Positions 11,129 through 22,406 of a DNA stretch of 64,000 nt are shown here, piece by piece. Origin of the DNA: an uncultured Chloroflexia bacterium (GTDB taxonomy: Bacteria; Chloroflexota; Limnocylindria; Limnocylindrales; CSP1-4). The stretch spans positions 512,001-576,000 of the forward strand of contig CAWHXD010000007.1 in NCBI GenBank assembly GCA_963833225.1. Reading direction: 5' to 3'. The first letter of the stretch is position 1; the number at the start of each line of letters is the position of its first letter. The position numbers and the translations under genes were made by a program. Under the pieces are notes generated by a model. It did no database searches and had not been told where the DNA came from. It saw only the letters and a program-made list of their open reading frames with translations.

Positions 11129-12034
11129 GTGGCCGACGCCGTCTCCGCCAGGGCGATCCTGAGCCGCGTCGAGCGGTTCGCGTCGATCGGCAGCACCAAC
11201 GACAAGGTCCGGGAGTGGCTGATGGACGCCGCGCCCGAGGTCTGCCTCGCCGTCGCCGATGCGCAGACGGCGGGCCGGGGACGATTCGACCGCGTCTGGA
11301 CAGCGCCCGCGGGCGCCGCGCTGCTGCTCTCGCTCGGCTTCCGGCCCACGTGGCTGGCACCCGACCGGACGTGGCGCCTGGCGGCGACCGTCGCGCTCGC
11401 GATGTGCGATGCGGCCGAGGACACGGCTGGGCTGCCGGTGGGCGCGGTCCGTCTCAAGTGGCCGAACGACCTGGTGATCGAGGTCGCCGGACCGAACGCG
11501 CTGCTGACCGGCGCGAACACCCCGGGCGAGGCCGCCGCGCGCCTCGGCGGCCCGTTGGAGCTGCGCAAGCTGGCCGGCCTCCTGGGCGAGACCGATGGCC
11601 TCGGAACGGACAGCCCGCGGGTCGTCGTGGGCATCGGCATCAACGCGGACTGGGAGCGGGTCGACTTCCCGCCCGATCTTGCGCACGCGATGACCAGCCT
11701 GCGCGAAGCGTCGGGCGGCCGCCCGATCGACCGCGAGCTGCTGCTCGAGTCGTTCCTGGACCATCTCGAGGCCCGCCTCGCTGCACTGCGGGCCGGCTTC
11801 TTCGACATCGCTGTCTGGACCTCTCGCCAGGCGACGAACGGCCGGCTGGTGACGCTCGAGGCCGGCGACGGGTCGGCATCGGAACCGCTGGTCGCCATGG
11901 GCGTGGACGCGTCGAGCGGCGCGCTCGTGCTCGAGGACGACTCCGTCAGCGGCGGCGAGCGCCATGTTCACGCCGGCGAGCTGATCCGGGTCCGCCTGGC
12001 GTCATCCGGGCAGGCACCACGGGACGGGGTGTAA
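11129..12034 (+). CDS. birA: Biotin--[acetyl-CoA-carboxylase] ligase (no N-terminal HTH)
   Basis: STND, QTAGRGR, KWPND, KLAG, VGIGIN motifs. Confidence 0.93.
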   Translation: MADAVSARAILSRVERFASIGSTNDKVREWLMDAAPEVCLAVADAQTAGRGRFDRVWTAPAGAALLLSLGFRPTWLAPDRTWRLAATVALAMCDAAEDTAGLPVGAVRLKWPNDLVIEVAGPNALLTGANTPGEAAARLGGPLELRKLAGLLGETDGLGTDSPRVVVGIGINADWERVDFPPDLAHAMTSLREASGGRPIDRELLLESFLDHLEARLAALRAGFFDIAVWTSRQATNGRLVTLEAGDGSASEPLVAMGVDASSGALVLEDDSVSGGERHVHAGELIRVRLASSGQAPRDGV

Positions 12035-12057
12035 CGACATGGCCCGCGCGGTGTTTG
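12030..12057 (+). promoter_or_regulatory. Putative ECF-type (autoregulatory) promoter
   Basis: TGTAAC then 16 nt then TGTTT immediately upstream of the ECF gene GTG at 12065. Confidence 0.35.
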
Positions 12058-12064
12058 GAAGCCA

Positions 12065-12687
12065 GTGAGCGTCAGACGGGAACCGTCGTCGTCCTCGATC
12101 GTGATCGTTTCCTCGTCGAGACCGCGCGCCGGGATCCTGCCCAGTTCGACGCCCTGTACCGGAAGTACCTCGCCCAGGTGTACAGCTTCGCCCTCTACGA
12201 GCTCGCGGACCATCACGCCGCCGAGGATGCCACCGAGCGCACGTTCCTCCGTGCGCTGGCGGCGCTTCCCCGGTTTCGCGAGCAGGCGCGCCCCGAGGAC
12301 GGCCCCGAGGCTTCCTCGTTCCGTGTCTGGCTGTTCCGGATCGCCCGCAACGTCGTGGCCAACGAGCGCCGGGCCAGGCGCCGCCGCCCGGCCGAGTCGC
12401 TGGATCTCGCCCTGGGCGCCGGCCTCGCCCTTGCGGACGGCACGGACCTCGAGGCGCAGGCCGTGACCCACGACCAGGCGTCCGAGGCGCTTCGAGCGCT
12501 CCGGGCGCTCCCCGACGACCGGCGCCGCGCCCTCACGCTGCGCTTCGTGGAGGAGATGAGCACCGCCGAGATCGCCGGGGTGCTGGGCCGGTCGGAGGGC
12601 GCCGTGCGAGTCCTGATCCACCGGGCGCTGGGCGCCGTCGCCCGCGAGCTCGGCCACGACCGCGGCTCGCGGGGGTCAGGCTCGTGA
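12065..12687 (+). CDS. ECF RNA polymerase sigma factor
   Basis: Region 2 (FDALYRKY..AEDATERTF..WLFRIARN) and region 4 (LPDDRRRALTLRF..TAEIAGVLGRSEGAVR). Start is GTG 12065 with an indel near 12090, or in-frame TTG 12055. Confidence 0.9.
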
Positions 12688-13302
12688 GCGCGCTGCGACT
12701 GCCGGACCGCGACGGAGACCAGGTTGATGCCCTGGTGGCGGATCGGTACCTCGACGCGCTTCTCGCCGCCGGCGACCGGCGCGCGCTGGACGCGCCGGCG
12801 GACGCGGCGCTGGATGCGGAGCTCCGAGACACCGCCCGCGTCCTGCGCCGCTCGCTCGTGCGTGTTCACCCCTCGTTCCGGTTCGAGGAGCGACTCGCGA
12901 ATCGCCTCTCGGACCTTGCCGCGGCCCAGGCTCGTGCCGGCTCGGCCGGCGCCGGTCGTGGAGCGACGATCCGGTTCCCGGGCGGGCCCGGGGCGGCGGA
13001 CACCGTCCTCGACGCGGACCCGCTGCTGGCGGCGATCCTTGCCGGCGACCTGGATCCCGACCGACGAGACCGCCATCGACCACGCCGGGCCGATGGGGTC
13101 TGGCCGTCGCCCGCTGCTGGTCGGCGGCGCCGCGATCACGTCGGCGGCGCTCTCGATCGTCGGCGTCGCCATCGTCGCCTGGCGCGCCTCTCGACCGGCA
13201 TCCCGGTCCGCGACGGCGGGCGCCATGGCCCGCGCCGCCCGGACCGCACACGCGCGCCGGGCCGCGGCCCTCGCCGCTGTCCTCAGCGGAGGTCATGCCT
13301 GA
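12684..13302 (+). CDS. Putative anti-sigma factor, single TM helix (frameshift near 13058)
   Basis: GTGA overlap with the sigma gene. N-terminal helical domain with PSFRFEERL; the TM segment (AITSAALSIVGVAIVAW) continues in another frame ending at 13302. Confidence 0.65.
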
Positions 13303-14154
13303 TGCCCGTCAAGTTCCCGCAGTTCCGGTCCCGCCGGGACGCGATGCCGGACAAGATGTGGACCCGATGCCCCTCCTGCGAGGAGCAGCTGTTCAACAAG
13401 CACCTCGAGAAGGCGCTCAACGTGTGCCCCTCGTGTGGGCATCATTTCCGGCTCTCCGCCCCGGTCCGCCTCGGCCAGCTGCTGGACGAGAGCACGTTCC
13501 AGGAGCGCGATCCGGGGCTGGTCAGCCTTGACCCCCTCGGGTTCACGGACCAGAAGCCGTACCCGGACCGCCTCGCCGCCGCGCAGCTCGCGACCGGCCT
13601 CAAGGACGCGGCGGTCTGGGGATACGGGACGATCGAGGGACAGCGCATCGCGATCCTGGTCATGGACTTCGGCTTCATGGGCGGCTCGATGGGGGCGGTC
13701 GTCGGGGAGAAGGTCGCGCGGGCCGCCGAGGGGGCCCTCGCCGAGCGCGTGCCGCTGGTCATCGTCTCCGCCTCGGGCGGGGCCCGGATGCAGGAAGGGA
13801 CGATGGCGCTGATGCAGCTGGCCAAGACGATGGCGGCCCTGGAGCGGCTCCGCGCCGCCGGTCTGCCGTACGTGTCCGTGATGAGCGACCCGACCACGGG
13901 CGGGGTCTTCGCCTCCTATGCCGTGATGGGCGACGTGAACCTCGCCGAGCCCAACGCCCTGATCGGCTTTGCCGGCGCGCGCGTTGGCGCCGGGACCATC
14001 GGCCAGGAGCTGCCGCCGGGCTTCCAGCGCTCCGAGTTCCTGTTCCGGCACGGCTTCGTGGACCGGATCATCGCCCGCCCCGATCTCCGGGGCGAGCTCG
14101 CCAGGATCCTTCGCTACCTCGCTCCCCAGCCAGGTGGAGGCCGGCCGTGGTTGA
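13302..14154 (+). CDS. accD: Acetyl-CoA carboxylase carboxyltransferase beta (frameshift near 14120)
   Basis: CxxC..CxxC zinc finger, FMGGSMG, SGGARMQEG, PTTGGV. Likely stop TGA 14152-14154 overlapping the accA start. Confidence 0.93.
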
Positions 14155-15172
14155 CCGTCTCCTGGGCCGCAAGGACAACGCCCCCGAGCCGGTTGCGGTC
14201 CCCGAGCCCGCCACCTCCGCCGAACGCAAGGCCGAGGTCTGGAGCCGGGTCCAGCTGGCGCGCAACCTGCGCCGCCCCCGGATCCTGGATCTGCTCGCGG
14301 TCATGGCGGACGAGTTCGTCGAACTCCACGGGGATCGCTTGTTCGGGGACGACGAGGCGATCGTGGCCGGGTTCGCGATCATCGGCGGCCACCGCGTCGC
14401 GGTCGTCGGCCAGCAGAAGGGCGCCGATACCGAGGAGAACGTCCGGCGCAACTTCGGGATGCCGCACCCGGAGGGCTACCGCAAGGCGATGCGGATCATG
14501 GAGCTCGCCGAGCGATCAGGCCTCCCGGTCGTGACGTTCGTGGACGTGCCAGGCGCACACCCGGGCGCCGAGAGCGAGGAGCGGGGGATTGCCGATGCGA
14601 TCGCCCGGTCCGTGGGTCTGATGACCCGCCTCCGGACCCCGATCGTGACCGTGATCACGGGCGAAGGGGGCTCGGGCGGCGCCCTCGCGATCGCCGTCGG
14701 CGACGTCGTCCTGGCGCTCGAAAACGCGGTGTATGCGGTCATCAGCCCCGAGGGATGCGCGAGCATCCTGTGGCGCACCACCGACGAGGCCGCCTCGGCT
14801 GCCTTCGCCATGCGCATGACCGCGCAGGACCAGCAGGTGCTGGGCGTCGTGGACCAGGTCATCGCGGAACCCGACGATGGGGCGCACACGGACCCCGTCG
14901 AGACCGGCCGGCGCCTCAAGAAGGCCGTGGTGGCCGAGCTGGATCGCCTCACGGCCATCCCCGTCGACGTGCTGCTCGACCAGCGCTATCGTCGATATCG
15001 GGCCCTTGGCCCGTACACCGAGATCGCCGCGCCACCCCAGGTCCCGCCGGCACCGCCCCGCCAGGGCTTTGCCGATCGCCTCCGCGGTCTGATCGAAGCC
15101 GGCCAGCGGGCGATGCCCGCGCCCCTGCCCGTTGGACGCCGGCAGGATCCCCCCGCGCGCGAGGACGTCTAG
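14147..15172 (+). CDS. accA: Acetyl-CoA carboxylase carboxyltransferase alpha
   Basis: ELHGDR, NFGMPHPEGYRKA, GEGGSGGALA, ISPEGCASILW. GGAGG RBS. Confidence 0.95.
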   Translation: MVDRLLGRKDNAPEPVAVPEPATSAERKAEVWSRVQLARNLRRPRILDLLAVMADEFVELHGDRLFGDDEAIVAGFAIIGGHRVAVVGQQKGADTEENVRRNFGMPHPEGYRKAMRIMELAERSGLPVVTFVDVPGAHPGAESEERGIADAIARSVGLMTRLRTPIVTVITGEGGSGGALAIAVGDVVLALENAVYAVISPEGCASILWRTTDEAASAAFAMRMTAQDQQVLGVVDQVIAEPDDGAHTDPVETGRRLKKAVVAELDRLTAIPVDVLLDQRYRRYRALGPYTEIAAPPQVPPAPPRQGFADRLRGLIEAGQRAMPAPLPVGRRQDPPAREDV

Positions 15173-15175
15173 CTC

Positions 15176-15747
15176 ATGCCCGAACCCCGTCACTCGAGCG
15201 ACCGGACCGCCGCCCAGCGGCGCGCGGATCACGAAGGCCTCGCCCGGCTGTCCGAGACGCTCGTGCCCGCGCTCATCGCCAAGCTCGACGTGTCGGGCCT
15301 CGGTGAGCTGGAGGTCCGCGAGGGCGACTGGAGGATCCGGCTGCGCCGCCCCGCGGGCACCACGCCGGCCCGACGTGAACGGCCTCGAACCGGCGCCCTG
15401 ATGGGCGGCGCTCCTGCCGCCGCCCGCACGCCCGTGGCCGGTGATCCCGTCGAGCCGCGCGATCCACACCGGGTCTCGGCCACCGCGCCGGCCGTCGGCG
15501 TGTTCCGCACCGTCGGCAAGATCGGCGGCCGCGTCCGGTTGCGGGCGACCGGATCGGCGTGGTCGATCTGCTGGGCATTCCCCAGGACGTGGCGGCACCG
15601 GTCGACGGCATCCTCGTGGAGTTCCTGGTCGAGAGCGGGGAGCCCGTCGAGTACGGCGAGGAGGTGGCGGTCGTGGCGGAGCCGGTCGTGGACCGGATCG
15701 GCGGCGACCCCGCTGGCGGCGCGACCACCGCGGACGGGGAGGGCTGA
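15176..15747 (+). CDS. BCCP-like biotinyl-domain protein lacking the biotin lysine (frameshift near 15540)
   Basis: BCCP N-terminus (LGELEVREGDWRIRL), APAVGVF, then AGDRIGVVDLLGIPQDVAAPVDG..GEPVEYG. DLLGI occupies the EAMKM position. Confidence 0.8.
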
Positions 15748-15749
15748 CG

Positions 15750-17122
15750 ATGGTCTCCCGTGTCCTGATCGCCAACCGCGGCGAGATCGCCCTGCGGATC
15801 CTGCGGGCGTGCCGGACCCTTGGCCTCGAGGCCGTGGTCGCCTACTCCGAGGCGGACCGCGCTTCACTGCCCGCGATGATCGCCGACGAGGCGATCTGCA
15901 TCGGGCCGGCTGACGCCCGCCGCTCGTATCTCTCGGCCCCCGCCATCATCTCGGCGGCCCTCGTGACGGGCTGCGACGCGATCCACCCGGGCTACGGGTT
16001 CCTGTCCGAGGACGACGCCTTCGCCGACGCCGTCCGCGCCCACGGGCTGACGTTCATCGGTCCCAGCGCCCCGGTGCTGGAGCGGTTCGCGTCCAAGGAG
16101 GAGACGCGGCGGCTGCTGGCCGCAGCACGGCCTGCCCACGATCCCTGGCTCAGGGCTCCTCGTGGACGAGCAGCAGGCGCTCGACGAGGCCGAGCGGATC
16201 GGCTACCCGGTCCTCCTCAAGCCGTCCGCCGGTGGCGGCGGCAAGGGCATGCGGATGGTCCGCTCGCCCCGCGAGCTGGCGGCGGTCCTCCCGATCTGCC
16301 GCTCCGAGGCCAGGGCAGCCTTCGGTGACGACTCGCTGTACCTCGAGAAGTGGCTCGAGGACAACAGGCACGTCGAGATCCAGGTGGCCGTGGACCGCTT
16401 CGGGCGCGGCGTCCACCTCTGGGAGCGTGACTGCTCGGTCCAGCGGCGTCACCAGAAGATCCTCGAGGAATCGCCCTCGCCGGCGATGACCGCGGCCGGC
16501 CGGGCCGAGCTCGCCGAGCGGGCCATCCGCGCCGTGGTCGCGGCCGGCTACGAGAACGTGGGCACGCTCGAGTTCCTCGTCGATGCCGAGGGCAGCGCCT
16601 TCTTCATCGAGATCAACTGCAGGATCCAGGTGGAGCATCCGGTGACCGAGATGCTGACGGGCATCGACCTCGTGGCGCTCCAGATCCGGATCGCGTCCGG
16701 CGAGCCCCTCGGCCTCACTCAGGCCGACATCCCGCAGCGCGGCCACGCGATCGAGTTCCGGATCAACGCCGAGGACCCGGAACACGACTTCCGGCCCGGC
16801 GCCGGGACCATCGAGCGGTTCAACGCGCCCGGCGGGCCGGGTGTCCGGTTCGACAGCCACGCCTATGCCGGGTACGAGGTCCCGCCCTACTACGACTCGC
16901 TGCTGGGCAAGCTGGTGGTCTGGGGTCCCACCCGGGAGGCCGCGATCGCCCGCGGCCGGGCCGCCCTCAGCGAGCTCGTGACCGACGGCGTGGTGACGAA
17001 CGCCTCGATCCATCGCGCCATCCTCGTCGTCCGAGCCGTTTCTGGAGGGCCGGTTCACCACCAACCTGCTCGACCGGATCGGCAGCGCCGCCTTCCTCGC
17101 GGCCGAGGAGCGCGCGTCGTGA
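15750..17122 (+). CDS. accC: Biotin carboxylase (frameshifts near 16125 and 17030)
   Basis: VLIANRGEIA, IHPGYGFLSE, GGGGKGMR, RDCSVQRRHQK, QVEHPVTE, YYDSLLGK. C-terminus ..FTTNLL..RAS-stop lies in a shifted frame. Confidence 0.94.
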
Positions 17123-17204: not shown

Positions 17205-17708
17205 GTGACCGATGCCAACCCCACCAGCAACGCCTCGCCGGACGCCACGCCGCCCCTCGCCGCCCCGTTCTCCGTCAGTGATATCCAGGGCCTGATCCCG
17301 CACCGCTGGCCGTTCCTGCTGGTGGACCGGATCGTCGAGTACGAGCCGGAGGAGAAGCGGATCGTTGGCATCAAGGCCGTGACCGCGACCGAGTGGTTCT
17401 TCCAGGGGCACTTCCCGGGCCTGCCAGTCATGCCGGGTGTCATCCAGGTCGAGGCGCTGGCGCAGACGATGGCCGTCTACGTCTCCAGCCAGCCGGGCTT
17501 CGGTGACCGGATCGGGCTGTTTGCCGGGATCGACGAGGTCCGCTTCAAGCGGGTCGTGGTGCCCGGCGACACGCTCCGGCTCGAGATCACGATGGAGAAG
17601 CTGGGCAGCCGCTTTGGCAAGGGCCGGGGCGTGGCTTCGGTGAACGGGGAGGTGGCCTGCGAAGGGCTGCTGTCGTTCGTCATCCCGCCGGCCGGGGTCC
17701 TGCGGTGA
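17205..17708 (+). CDS. fabZ: 3-hydroxyacyl-ACP dehydratase
   Basis: PHRWPFLLVDR, FQGHFP..PVMPGV..EALAQ. Confidence 0.96.
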   Translation: MTDANPTSNASPDATPPLAAPFSVSDIQGLIPHRWPFLLVDRIVEYEPEEKRIVGIKAVTATEWFFQGHFPGLPVMPGVIQVEALAQTMAVYVSSQPGFGDRIGLFAGIDEVRFKRVVVPGDTLRLEITMEKLGSRFGKGRGVASVNGEVACEGLLSFVIPPAGVLR

Positions 17709-18451
17709 CCCGGATCGCGATCCTGTCCGACGTCCACGGCAACTCGGTTGCCCTGGAGGCCGTGCTCAAGGAGCTCAAGCGCGAGAAGCCGGACTTCGTG
17801 CTCGTCGCCGGCGACCTCGTCCTCAACGGGCCGGACCCCAATGGCACGATCGACGCGCTGCGCGGCCTCGAGGGCGACGGCGGGATCATCGTGTCCGGCA
17901 ATACCGACATCGCGGTCGGGGACTTCGACTACGGGTCGGCGTTTCCGCAGTACCAGGATGGCGTGCCCGACACCGTCACCGCGGCCACCGAGTGGGCGCA
18001 TGACGAGCTGGGTGACGCGCAGCTGGACTGGCTCCGGCGGCTCCCGGCGGAGCGGCGCATCCGGGCCGGTGACGACCAGCTGGTGCTCGTCGTCCACGCG
18101 TCGCCCGGGTCGCAGACGCGTGGCTTCGACCAGACGCTGGAGGCGAACATCATCTTCGAGCGCGCGGCAGCGACCGATGCCCGGGTGATCTGCGTCGGGC
18201 ACACCCACCTGCCCGAGGTGCGCGACCTGGGCTGGAAGGTGATCGTCAACGACGGCTCGGCAGGCTTCGTGTTCGACGGCGACCCGACCGCGTCGTGGGC
18301 GATGGTGACCATCGATGGCACCGAGGTGGCCGCCGAGATCCGGCGCACCGAGTTCGACGTGCTCTCCGTGGCCAACGCGATCAGCGCCCGCGGTCTGCCG
18401 GGTGACGTCTACCGCGCCGCGACGGTGCGCACGGGGAAGCTGGTCCGATGA
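17705..18451 (+). CDS. Calcineurin-like metallophosphoesterase
   Basis: SDVHGN, GDLV, GNTD, VHASP, GHTH. Overlaps fabZ and fabF by 4 nt each. Confidence 0.92.
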   Translation: MTRIAILSDVHGNSVALEAVLKELKREKPDFVLVAGDLVLNGPDPNGTIDALRGLEGDGGIIVSGNTDIAVGDFDYGSAFPQYQDGVPDTVTAATEWAHDELGDAQLDWLRRLPAERRIRAGDDQLVLVVHASPGSQTRGFDQTLEANIIFERAAATDARVICVGHTHLPEVRDLGWKVIVNDGSAGFVFDGDPTASWAMVTIDGTEVAAEIRRTEFDVLSVANAISARGLPGDVYRAATVRTGKLVR

Positions 18452-19719
18452 CCTGGCAGTGGCCGGTGCGGCCACCTCGTGTCGTGATCACCGGGATGGG
18501 CGCCGTCACGGCGCTGGGACAGGATGTGGGCTCCACCTGGGACGGGCTCGTCGCGGGCCGGTCGGGTGTCGCCCGGATCACCCAGTTCGACCCGGAGCGC
18601 GTGAGCTCGCGGATCGCGGCGGAGGTCAAGGATTTCGACCCGTCCGCCGTGCTGGACCGCAAGGACATGCGCCGGACCGACCGGTACATCCAGTTCGCGC
18701 TCGTCGCCGCTCGCCAGGCGATGGACCAGGCGGGGTTGCCCGGTCGCCTTGACGAGGCGATGGGCGTCCGGACCGGCGTCATCGTCGGGTCGGGCCTGGG
18801 CGGCGTCCACACCCTGTTCGACAACGTGCTCCTGATGGCCGGGCGCGGACCGGACCGGATCTCGCCGTTCTTCATCCCGATGGGCATCGCCAACGTGGGT
18901 GCCGGGCAGATCGCGATCGCCACCGGCGCCATCGGCCCCAACTTCGCCACCGTGTCGGCGTGCGCGTCGGGCGGCCACGCCCTGGGCGAGGCCTGGGAGA
19001 CCATCCGCCGCGGCGATGCGGACATGATGCTCGCGGGCGGCGTCGAAGCCGGCATCCACGAGGCCACGGTCGGCGGGTTCGCGTCGATGAAGGCGCTGTC
19101 GACGCGCAACGACGACCCTGAGGCCGCGTCCCGGCCCTTCGACAGGGGCCGTGACGGCTTCGTCATCGGCGAGGGCGGCGGGGTGCTGATCCTCGAGACC
19201 CTCGAGCACGCCGAGGCCCGGCATGCGGTTCCGCTCGCGGAGCTCGTGGGCTACGGGGCAACGGCGGACGCGTCGCACATCACGCTGCCGGCGCCCGGGG
19301 GGATCGGCGCGGTCCGGGCCGCCCGGCGCGCCCTCGAGAAGGCCGGCATGGACCCGGCCGAGATCGTGCACGTCAACGCCCATGCCACGTCCACCCCCGA
19401 GGGCGACAAGGCGGAGCTGCAGGCGATCCGCACGATCTTCGGGGATCACGCTCCGGCGGTCTCCGTGGCGGCCCACAAGTCCATGATCGGCCACACGCTT
19501 GGCGCGGCCGGCGCGATCGAAGCGATCGCCACGATCTGCGCGATGCGCGAGGGGTGCATCCCGCCCACGATCAACCTCGTCGACCCCGACGATCTCGCGC
19601 AAGGCCTGGACCTCACCCCCAACACCGCCGTCCGCCGGCCGGTTGCGGCCGCGATGTCCAACTCGTTCGGGTTTGGCGGGCAGAACACGGCGCTCGTCTT
19701 CCGGAGGTGGGACGGATGA
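18448..19719 (+). CDS. fabF: 3-oxoacyl-ACP synthase II
   Basis: VVITGMG, SACASG catalytic Cys, NAHATST, KSMIGH, NSFGFGGQN. Confidence 0.96.
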   Translation: MTWQWPVRPPRVVITGMGAVTALGQDVGSTWDGLVAGRSGVARITQFDPERVSSRIAAEVKDFDPSAVLDRKDMRRTDRYIQFALVAARQAMDQAGLPGRLDEAMGVRTGVIVGSGLGGVHTLFDNVLLMAGRGPDRISPFFIPMGIANVGAGQIAIATGAIGPNFATVSACASGGHALGEAWETIRRGDADMMLAGGVEAGIHEATVGGFASMKALSTRNDDPEAASRPFDRGRDGFVIGEGGGVLILETLEHAEARHAVPLAELVGYGATADASHITLPAPGGIGAVRAARRALEKAGMDPAEIVHVNAHATSTPEGDKAELQAIRTIFGDHAPAVSVAAHKSMIGHTLGAAGAIEAIATICAMREGCIPPTINLVDPDDLAQGLDLTPNTAVRRPVAAAMSNSFGFGGQNTALVFRRWDG

Positions 19720-20414
19720 CCGGTGACGAGTCGCAGCCCGAGCCCGCAGAGGAGGTGTCGATGACCGAGCCCGGCCTGGTTGAGCCCATCGCGGTGGGCC
19801 CCGGCGAGCCCGAGGCGTCCGCTGGCAACGGCGCAGCGGGCGATGCATCCCCGGTGCCGGCAGCCACGGGACCCGATGACGAGCCCATCGCGGGCGGCTC
19901 CGTGACCGACGCGCCCACCGACCCGTCGGACACCTCGCTGCTCGCCCTCGTGGACCAGCTGACCGTCCTGCTCGAGCGGAGCGACCTCGGGGAGCTCGAG
20001 GTGGCCGCGGGCGACACGACCATCATCCTGCGGTCGCCGGCCGCGATCGAGCGCCCGGCCGCGGCGGCCTCATCGCCCGCGGTCGAACCGACGCCCGCCG
20101 CCGATGGTGGGTCCTCGTCCTCGCCCGCCGCGCAACCCCCGGCCCAGGTCCCCGCCCCGGTGGTGGCGCCGGCCAAGCCGTCGGTCAAGGCGCCCCTCAC
20201 GGGCATCTTCTACGGCGCGCCGTCGCCGGGAGCCACCGCCTACGTGGCCGTTGGCGATCACGTTGCCGTCGGCCAGATCATCGGCCTGATCGAGGCGATG
20301 AAGCTGTTCAATGAGATCAAGAGCGACCTCGCCGGCCGCGTCGTGCGCGTCTGCGCCGACAATGGGGCGCTGGTCAAGGCCAGGCAACCGCTGATCGAGG
20401 TCGAGCTCGCATGA
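19716..20414 (+). CDS. accB: Biotin carboxyl carrier protein
   Basis: APLTGIFY, IEAMKLFNEI biotinylation motif, Pro/Ala linker. Confidence 0.93.
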   Translation: MTGDESQPEPAEEVSMTEPGLVEPIAVGPGEPEASAGNGAAGDASPVPAATGPDDEPIAGGSVTDAPTDPSDTSLLALVDQLTVLLERSDLGELEVAAGDTTIILRSPAAIERPAAAASSPAVEPTPAADGGSSSSPAAQPPAQVPAPVVAPAKPSVKAPLTGIFYGAPSPGATAYVAVGDHVAVGQIIGLIEAMKLFNEIKSDLAGRVVRVCADNGALVKARQPLIEVELA

Positions 20415-21609
20415 CGTCCCCTGCGACGCGCTCAGTCCGCCTCACCGGCTGGGGTCGCTACGCCCCCGCCCAGGTGCTCACCAACGCCGACCTGGAGCGC
20501 ATGGTCGACACCTCCGACGAGTGGATCGTCAGCCGCACCGGGATCCGCGAGCGGCGGGTCGCGGCCGCCGACGAGACGACCGCGTCGATGGCGGCCGTGG
20601 CTGGGCTGCGGGCGATCCACACCGCCGGCCTCGCGCCCGAGGACATCGACCTGATCATCCTCGCCACGCTCACGCCCGACTACTGGATGCCGTCCACGGC
20701 GGCGCTGGTCAAGGAGGCGATCGGCAACTACGAAGGCGGCTGCCTTCGACGTCGCGGCCGCCTGCTCCGGCTTCGTGTATGCCTACGCGACCGCGTCCGC
20801 CTACATCGCGTCCGGGATGGCCCAGCAACGCGCTCGTCATCGGGGCGGAGCTGCTGACCCGGTTCCTGGACTACTCGGACCGGAGCACCTGCATCCTGTT
20901 CGGGGACGGCGCGGGGGCCGTGGTGCTCAGCGCCAGCGACGAGCCAACGGCGCCGATCGGCATCGAGATGACGACCGAGCCCCAGGGCGCGTACATGATC
21001 TGGCTCCCGGCGGGTGGCTCCAAGAGCCCGCCGTCGGCCGAGACGATCGCCCGCGGCGAGCACAAGATCCGGATGGAAGGCCGCGAGACCTATCGCTTCG
21101 CCACCCGGACCCTCGCCTCCACCGCCCTCGCCGCCGTCGCCAAGGCGGGCCTGACCCAGGGCGACATCGACCTGATCATCCCGCACCAGGCCAACATCCG
21201 GATCATCGAGGCGGTGGCCAAGGGCCTGGACCTGTCGATGGACCGGATCTACGTCAACCTCGACCGCTACGGCAACACCTCGGCCGCGTCGGTGCCCATC
21301 GCGCTCGCCGAGGCGGTGAATGAGGGCCGCGTCCAGGCCGGTGACAAGATCGTGTTCGTCGCCTTTGGCGCCGGCTTCACGTCCGGCGCGGTGGCCATGG
21401 AGTGGACCGCCGACCCGGCCCGCGGCCGTGACGCCGACGACGCCGTCCGGGCGGCCGATGTCCGGATCCGGCTGCCGCAGGACTGGGATTCCGTGGATCC
21501 CATCCCGCCCGCGCTGGCCGAGATCCTCGCCCGGCCACTGCCCGGGCACATGGACCTGTCCGACGTCGCGCCCGGCGAGCCCGAGCACGCCCACCAGCCC
21601 ACACACTGA
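20411..21609 (+). CDS. fabH: 3-oxoacyl-ACP synthase III (frameshifts near 20730 and 20823)
   Basis: DTSDEWIVSRTGIRERR, AACSGF, FGDGAGA, PHQAN, YGNTSAAS across three frames. Confidence 0.94.
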
Positions 21610-21656
21610 CCGCCCAGGCCCCGCCCGGCCTTGAGCCCCGGAGGAAGGAACGCCAC

Positions 21657-22406
21657 ATGCTCGATCTCAACGGCAAGGTCGCCCTCGTCACCGGAGGGTC
21701 CCGCGGCATCGGCCGCGCCGTCTCGCTGATGCTCGCCCGGCAGGGAGCCAACGTGGCCTTCATCGACCGCGAGGCGTGTCTCCTCGACGACCACACCAAG
21801 AGCGACGTGGAGGCCCTTGGCCGCCGATCGGTGTGTGTGGGCGGCGACGTCACCAGCCCGGAGTCGTGTGCCGAGACGGTGGAGGCAGCGCTCAAGGCGT
21901 TCGGGCGCATCGACATCCTGGTCAACAACGCGGGGATCACCCGCGACGACCTCGCCATGCGGATGAGCGACCAGGCCTGGGCCGACGTGATCAACGTCAA
22001 CCTCACCGGGTCGTTCTACATGGCCCGGGCCGTCCTCCGCCCGATGCTCAAGCAGCGCTCGGGGCGGATCGTCAACATGTCCAGCGTGTCCGGCCAGATG
22101 GGCAACGCGGGTCAGGCGAACTACTCGGCGTCCAAGGCGGGGCTGATCGGCCTCACCAAGGCCCTTGCCCGCGAGGTCGCCTCGCGCGGGATCACGGTCA
22201 ACGCCATCGCTCCCGGCTTTGTCGTCACGGAGCTCACCGACACGCTCCCGGACGGCGTGAAGGACGCGATCAAGGGCGCCACGCCGCTGGGCCGCTTTGC
22301 CACGCCGGACGAGATCGCGGCGGCCGTCACCTTCCTCGTCTCGGACGAGGCCGGGTACATCACGGGCCAGGTGCTCGGGGTGGACGGCGGCCTCGCGATG
22401 ATGTAG
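21657..22406 (+). CDS. fabG: 3-oxoacyl-ACP reductase
   Basis: TGGSRGIG, NNAGITRD, YSASK, ITGQVL. Confidence 0.95.
   Translation: MLDLNGKVALVTGGSRGIGRAVSLMLARQGANVAFIDREACLLDDHTKSDVEALGRRSVCVGGDVTSPESCAETVEAALKAFGRIDILVNNAGITRDDLAMRMSDQAWADVINVNLTGSFYMARAVLRPMLKQRSGRIVNMSSVSGQMGNAGQANYSASKAGLIGLTKALAREVASRGITVNAIAPGFVVTELTDTLPDGVKDAIKGATPLGRFATPDEIAAAVTFLVSDEAGYITGQVLGVDGGLAMM

Follow-up and report, generated by a model that had tools for sequence, protein, structure and literature searches.

A conserved lysine-less paralogue of the biotin carboxyl carrier protein in Chloroflexota, a candidate structural subunit of acetyl-CoA carboxylase

The acetyl-CoA carboxylase (ACC) genes in the 64,000 nt of Limnocylindria DNA analysed here (the window; contig CAWHXD010000007.1, positions 512,001 to 576,000) raise the question of what role a BCCP (biotin carboxyl carrier protein) could have if it cannot carry biotin. 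An earlier note, made from the sequence alone, had placed a full-length BCCP paralogue between accA and accC, and the two flanking genes were identified as such by matches to Pfam ACCA and Biotin_carb_N. The note had also read Gly in place of the Lys at the biotin position, and the codon GGC is indeed found at 15574-15576 of the window. The canonical accB, located at 19716-20414 with the hairpin GLIEAMKLFNEI (EAMKLFN), follows fabF. The features of the cluster are listed in Table 1.

Table 1. Features of the acc/fab cluster and of the lysine-less paralogue (window coordinates).
Feature	Position	Strand	Details
Biotin protein ligase (birA-like)	11129..12034	+	Pfam PF03099
accD (carboxyltransferase beta, zinc ribbon)	13302..14150	+	+1 error close to its end
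accA (carboxyltransferase alpha)	14147..15172	+	Stop 3 nt upstream of paralogue start
Lysine-less BCCP paralogue (putative 'anchor')	15176..15747	+	189 aa long in relatives; two extra bases close to 15540
N-terminal domain, long helix and beta-hairpin (GLGELEVREGDWRIRLRR)	15176..15358	+	Homologous to AccB N-terminal domain
Val, equivalent of E. coli BCCP Val88 (BC docking contact)	15494..15496	+	By alignment; invariant; 66/66 genomes
Hairpin DLLGIPQ replacing EAMKLFN	15565..15585	+	Gly codon GGC at 15574-15576
PVEY, equivalent of E. coli Pro145-Val-Glu147-Phe148 (docking contacts)	15643..15654	+	By alignment; available part of the PMC11160672 supplement
accC (biotin carboxylase)	15750..17122	+	Two +1 errors; start 2 nt past paralogue stop
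fabZ, metallophosphoesterase, fabF	17205..19719	+	Between accC and carrier accB
accB 'carrier'	19716..20414	+	EAMK lysine at 20301-20303; thumb present; T88, L145, K147, A148
fabH and fabG	20411..22406	+	fabH frameshifted in assembly, named from translation

Promoter and terminator consensus sequences were looked for and none was found. Between the biotin ligase and accD (12034-13300) lie a gene for an ECF-type sigma factor and, downstream of it, a gene that matches no Pfam family, with probable assembly frameshifts in this pair near 12064 and 13056. The calcineurin-like metallophosphoesterase gene in the fabZ-fabF gap (17705-18451) is present in families f1 and f2 and absent from the f3 loci read. 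A fabD-like acyltransferase gene is located between the paralogue and accC at L114:8489-9454 and at 15 other f3 loci, and is missing from this slot in L062 and L066/L116. The genome also encodes, at G000:C8:440219-443955, a second set of biotin carboxylase and carboxyltransferase together with a separate lysine carrier that lacks the thumb; this set is probably a different acyl-CoA carboxylase.

The reading frame of the paralogue is broken in the window. From the ATG at 15176, frame 1 yields the N-terminal 122 residues, ending ...KIGGRVRL, and the next frame encodes GDRIGVVDLLGIPQDV up to the TGA at 15745-15747. The span of 572 nt is 2 above the 570 required for the 189 aa of P0004, the closest database relative (best match listed), which is unbroken and shares 90% and 93% identity with the pieces before and after the break. 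The indel suspected near 15540 in the earlier note is a surplus of two bases, which the window shows against each of the three relatives examined. Uncompensated +1 errors relative to three relatives also occur in accC (16122 and 17027) and fabH (20729 and 20824), and the base at 16122 is missing from the contigs of three public runs, the listed pieces of which do not bridge 15540. Given these errors in neighbouring genes and the missing base at 16122, the 2-base frameshift in the paralogue is most likely an assembly error, as judged from its surroundings rather than read directly at the site. Apparent fusions with AccA or AccC among the relatives were taken as probable frameshift products.

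The best match of the paralogue among solved structures is E. coli BCCP (4HR7_B, E 5e-16), with both domains covered. The AF2 model of P0004 consists of an N-terminal domain with a helix (residues 12-40) and two strands (44-48 and 53-57), a disordered linker, and a C-domain with the biotinyl fold (pLDDT 93-98, rmsd 1.1 Å to 1BDO over 75 columns); the match to Pfam PF00364 is weak and falls on a half-domain. The N-terminal domain matches the AccB N-domain with a profile probability of 97.3 and has the helix-hairpin that forms part of the TIGR00531 definition of AccB/BCCP, and another element of this definition, the E-x-M-K motif with the biotinylated lysine, is absent. The TIGR00531 cut-off is 115.2 bits; P0004 scores 46, and the carrier in the window also falls below it at 107.4. 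The thumb loop is short, with 25 or 27 residues between the V88 and K122 positions as compared with 33, having lost 8 residues in the genus and 6 in the remaining class, and many lysine-less copies outside the class retain the 33-residue spacing. The N-terminal helix in the genus is longer and strongly conserved (R10, D18, H19); the N-terminal extension varies in other families. With E. coli AccB/BCCP (TIGR00531; 1BDO, 4HR7, 8UXZ), the paralogue shares the helix-hairpin N-domain, an Ala/Pro linker, the biotinyl-fold C-domain and equivalents of V88, E147 and F148, but it differs in lacking Lys122 and in its shortened thumb. Hence, without the lysine and with a short thumb, it is not a member of AccB.

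Within the class Limnocylindria, the C-terminal piece was matched in 56 of the 61 genomes searched. The matches are weak in a family with genomes of 1.0-1.4 Mb, and five long loci of this family include the same paralogue in the same slot, with both BCCP-type genes persisting in 5/5. Gly occupies the lysine position in 119/119 aligned homologues (the best 120 of 187 matches listed, minus one fused record), a set biased to similar hairpins because it was retrieved via shared words, as well as in all 142 hairpin-covered members of the best 150 cluster representatives and in 66/66 class genomes as read from the genome loci. Lys occurs in no other C-domain column in more than 15 of the 66 class genomes. 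Given the Gly in the 119 homologues and the 66 genomes, the loss of Lys is not due to chance. Both accA and accC adjoin the paralogue in 63/66 genomes, the other three having one neighbour within the DNA read, and a lysine-bearing AccB follows fabF in 25/25 long loci read. The accA-X-accC order, for which the earlier note had suggested a search, was found in 28 of the 29 loci from the genus, and the remaining one is truncated at a contig end. For the 29 genus copies, pN is lower than pS in all 406 pairs (0.20 versus 0.43, uncorrected). The source names of the relatives are Ca. Limnocylindrales and Ktedonobacteria. Of the outcomes that would have counted against the original proposal, orthologues with an MK motif were not encountered in the 119 homologues or 66 genomes, and the gene is not decayed in close relatives but intact and under purifying selection. 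The lysine-less paralogue is thus confirmed as real and conserved, and its sequence indicates that it is probably functional.

In E. coli, the non-catalytic docking site of BCCP is formed by BC and the AccD N-terminus, and the contacts involve M121, M123, P145, E147, V88 and F148, with M121 and M123 named as the main ones and V88 and F148 as merely moderately conserved; the N-terminal domains of BCCP are proposed to oligomerise, stopping the carriers from diffusing off (available parts of PMC11160672). These positions were mapped onto the Limnocylindria proteins through alignment to 4HR7 chain B. The class paralogue has V88, L121, I/V123, E147 and Y/F148 in 66/66 genomes together with the shortened thumb, and the class carrier has T88, M121, K122, L123, K147 and A/R/T/S148 in 25/25 together with a full thumb. 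P145 is poorly kept in both copies (Pro in 14/66 paralogues). As judged by the alignment, the losses in the two copies are complementary, such that the docking residues are kept in the paralogue, and the lysine and thumb are kept in the carrier without V88, F148 and often E147. Since the lysine-less copy has kept docking residues while the carrier largely shows the reverse, the former is likely a structural anchor, and each of two genes here appears to have taken on one of the two E. coli BCCP roles. VEY could also have been retained in the paralogue through inherited conservation of the fold, and the carrier, with M121 and a hydrophobic residue at 123, may still dock. On the AccC side, the docking-surface residues I/V49, I51, P53 and A65 are retained in 24/24 sequences from the 25 long loci, and I49, I51, P53, P64 and A65 are present in the accC product of the window, although these residues may be conserved for reasons other than docking. 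Lys8 of AccD, the partner of E147, did not align reliably.

The earlier note had assigned the paralogue to one bacterial lineage, and the distribution proved wider. When 301 genomes of the phylum were searched with a profile, 34 were chosen from among the best matches outside the class. A lysine-less copy is carried by 25 of these, from 11 family codes, mostly at the efp-xseA locus rather than adjoining acc genes, and a fabF-linked lysine carrier is present in all 25. V88, E147 and Y/F148 were found in 25/25 of these lysine-less copies versus 0/25 of the partner carriers. In each of the remaining nine genomes, the efp/xseA slot is occupied by a single intact AccB (K plus VEY), and a fabF-type carrier was not found. 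A second set of 78 further, previously unused genomes was hand-picked for its coverage of families; at the thresholds used, an AccB-type match was present in 32 of them and absent from 46. This set includes 21 pairs, no lysine-less copy alone, one carrier alone (in a genome that is 87% complete and in about 490 contigs), nine genomes with a single intact AccB (K plus VEY) where a fabF-type carrier was not found, and one genome that has three lysine-bearing copies. V88, E147 and F/Y148 are all kept in 21/21 of the lysine-less copies of the second set; V88 and F/Y148 are lost in 22/22 carriers, and E147 is retained in 10/22.

In total, 17 family codes outside the class have the pair, cultured Ktedonobacteria among them, and it is present in Ktedonosporobacter rubrisoli SCAWS-G2 and Dictyobacter aurantiacus S27. 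Lysine-less hairpins such as EAMDIMN and EAMGMLN depart from the motif at the lysine only. Chloroflexus islandicus and Herpetosiphon llansteffanensis have one intact copy each, and this single AccB (K plus VEYGQ) resembles the lysine-less copies outside the class in its efp/xseA slot and C-terminal motif but has kept the lysine, a fabF-linked carrier not being found in those genomes. As a control, K and V88 are retained in 54/54 AccB of other phyla among the matches listed (at least 80 loci); E147 and Y148 are uninformative in this control because VEYGQ was among the search patterns.

Other arrangements were also observed. Genome G248 (L207, L238, L239) encodes three lysine-bearing AccB-type copies, two of them adjoining accC, and a lysine-less copy was not found in it, unlike in two other genomes of its family. 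Family f50 (L159-L162, L241-L242) has an intact AccB and two more biotinyl domains of thumb length, which have odd hairpins (EVMKLMH, GVMKTFH) and lack the docking motif. An AccB with an E. coli-like signature at L078 lies beside an RHS protein on a 3-kb contig and is possibly contamination; the family of L078 is otherwise without AccB-type matches.

In a quick tree of 93 rows, 37 lysine-less copies fall on one branch (SH-aLRT 89) and 37 carriers on a separate branch (SH-aLRT 97) that includes two odd rows. When the trait columns were left out together with 8 rows that were odd or belonged to the outgroup, the carriers again grouped together (85), and the lysine-less copies required two changes instead of one. 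Both are quick trees and comprise copies from Chloroflexota genomes only. The simplest reading would be an old duplication of accB in Chloroflexota, with one or more losses of the lysine. As the split may be a single event, the genomes counted above are not independent observations.

On balance, the evidence leans towards an ancient duplication by which BCCP became divided into an anchor and a carrier, the two being likely linked through their N-terminal domains. The lysine-less copy would accordingly be a permanent structural subunit of ACC. Its C-terminal domain is predicted to occupy the docking site on AccC/AccD that is non-catalytic, and the N-terminal domain would bind its counterpart in the lysine-bearing AccB and so hold the carrier at the enzyme. 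The carrier would perform the chemistry, and activity would need both proteins. Binding to AccC, co-assembly of the N-domains and the requirement for both proteins are what we infer from the sequences; the N-terminal helix-hairpin domain is retained in both copies, and such homologous domains fit co-assembly. In plants, BADC proteins are reported in the available parts of PMC11926652, PMC12706156 and PMC13585458 to aid assembly (in the first two, of the holoenzyme) and to bind the N-terminal region of BCCP, and holoenzymes without BADC are cited in the first two as having very low activity. The anchor reading is weakened by the carrier having kept the M121 and 123 contacts, by the survival of E147 in some carriers, and by the location of the gene away from acc genes outside the class.

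The earlier note had proposed either a scaffold or an inhibitor, and the complementary losses and strict co-occurrence favour the former. A tunable inhibitor, in competition with the carrier either for AccC or for positions within the BCCP oligomer and thereby lowering fatty-acid flux, is unlikely, as a pure brake leaves the matching loss of docking residues from the carrier unexplained, the paralogue is retained in reduced genomes, and its 3 and 2 nt spacing to accA and accC in the class suggests fixed co-expression. This is despite BADCs having first been described as negative regulators that can sequester BC (PMC12706156 and PMC13585458, in part), the binding of BCCP/BADC by PII, and the presence of a PII gene in the genome. 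Less likely still is a subunit that stabilises an AccC-AccD assembly or filament without tethering the carrier, or a protein that regulates by way of its N-terminal domain, just as the N-terminus of E. coli AccB acts on the expression of accBC. The longer, strongly conserved helix in the genus would suit such a role, and accBC is repressed by residues 1-68 of E. coli AccB (PMC11160672, available text), but the extension is not alike in other families, and the same helix-hairpin domain in both copies fits co-assembly.

An adaptor that connects FabD or other fatty-acid enzymes with the carboxylase is improbable, as is a role outside the carboxylase. Although a fabD-like gene separates the paralogue from accC in many f3 genomes, fabD in this genome is on a different contig, and a fusion with FabD was not seen in the 9 long relatives checked. 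Similarly, efp and xseA adjoin the gene outside the class, but the intact AccB of Chloroflexia occupies the same efp-xseA slot, which is therefore ancestral and uninformative on function. A decaying duplicate or sequencing artefact, suggested by the frameshift in the window copy, is largely refuted and scarcely credible: the gene is open and conserved in relatives, with the pN and pS values given above, similar errors occur in essential neighbouring genes, and the breaks seen in two of the 29 genus loci (L021 and L038) likewise accompany breaks in the adjoining acc genes.

Amongst known systems, the proposed anchor is most readily compared with plant and algal BADC (Arabidopsis BADC1-3; Chlamydomonas Cre01.g037850). 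The analogy drawn in the earlier note holds for the way of working, as both are BCCP homologues without a biotinylation motif that accompany a biotinylated BCCP and heteromeric ACC, but it does not extend to family membership. BADC is nuclear-encoded and plastid-targeted in plants and algae, whereas the paralogue sits in a bacterial gene cluster, and its partner carrier has lost docking residues, a loss not seen described for plants in the available text of the BADC papers cited here. Since its nearest relatives are Chloroflexota AccB, the paralogue probably has an origin independent of BADC, as judged by sequences other than those of BADC itself. The actinobacterial epsilon subunits, which we take to be those named AccE/PccE, are small, unrelated to BCCP and act on the carboxyltransferase. 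They are comparable in serving a bacterial acyl-CoA carboxylase as a non-catalytic 'glue' subunit (PMC11926652, in part). In the same available text, BADC is termed 'unique to the plant htACCase', and the part of PMC11077971 available describes a biotinylated BC-BCCP fusion and not a lysine-less copy. No bacterial lysine-less BCCP was found in the literature searched, which consisted mostly of titles and abstract openings, with key BADC papers, including an evolution survey, outside its scope.

Taken further, and more tentatively, ACC across several Chloroflexota classes may be an obligate five-subunit enzyme, with BCCP divided into an anchor free of biotin and a carrier that depends on this anchor. 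Bacteria would then have arrived at the BADC principle independently, and the pair would be a natural case of separated functions, indicating that the non-catalytic docking site of heteromeric ACCs is structural, as is the 'spare' BCCP. As a consequence for annotation, many Chloroflexota genes named 'biotin carboxyl carrier protein' would, from their sequences, be unable to carry biotin. The pair also bears on whether BADC is a brake or an assembly factor, both views being current (PMC12706156, available text). It addresses in addition the reason for the non-catalytic BCCP site of E. coli and for the excess of BCCP, of which about twice as much is thought to be made as of the catalytic subunits (PMC11160672, in part). 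With docking and biotin carriage on separate genes, in cultured Ktedonobacteria, both questions would be testable by simple reconstitution.
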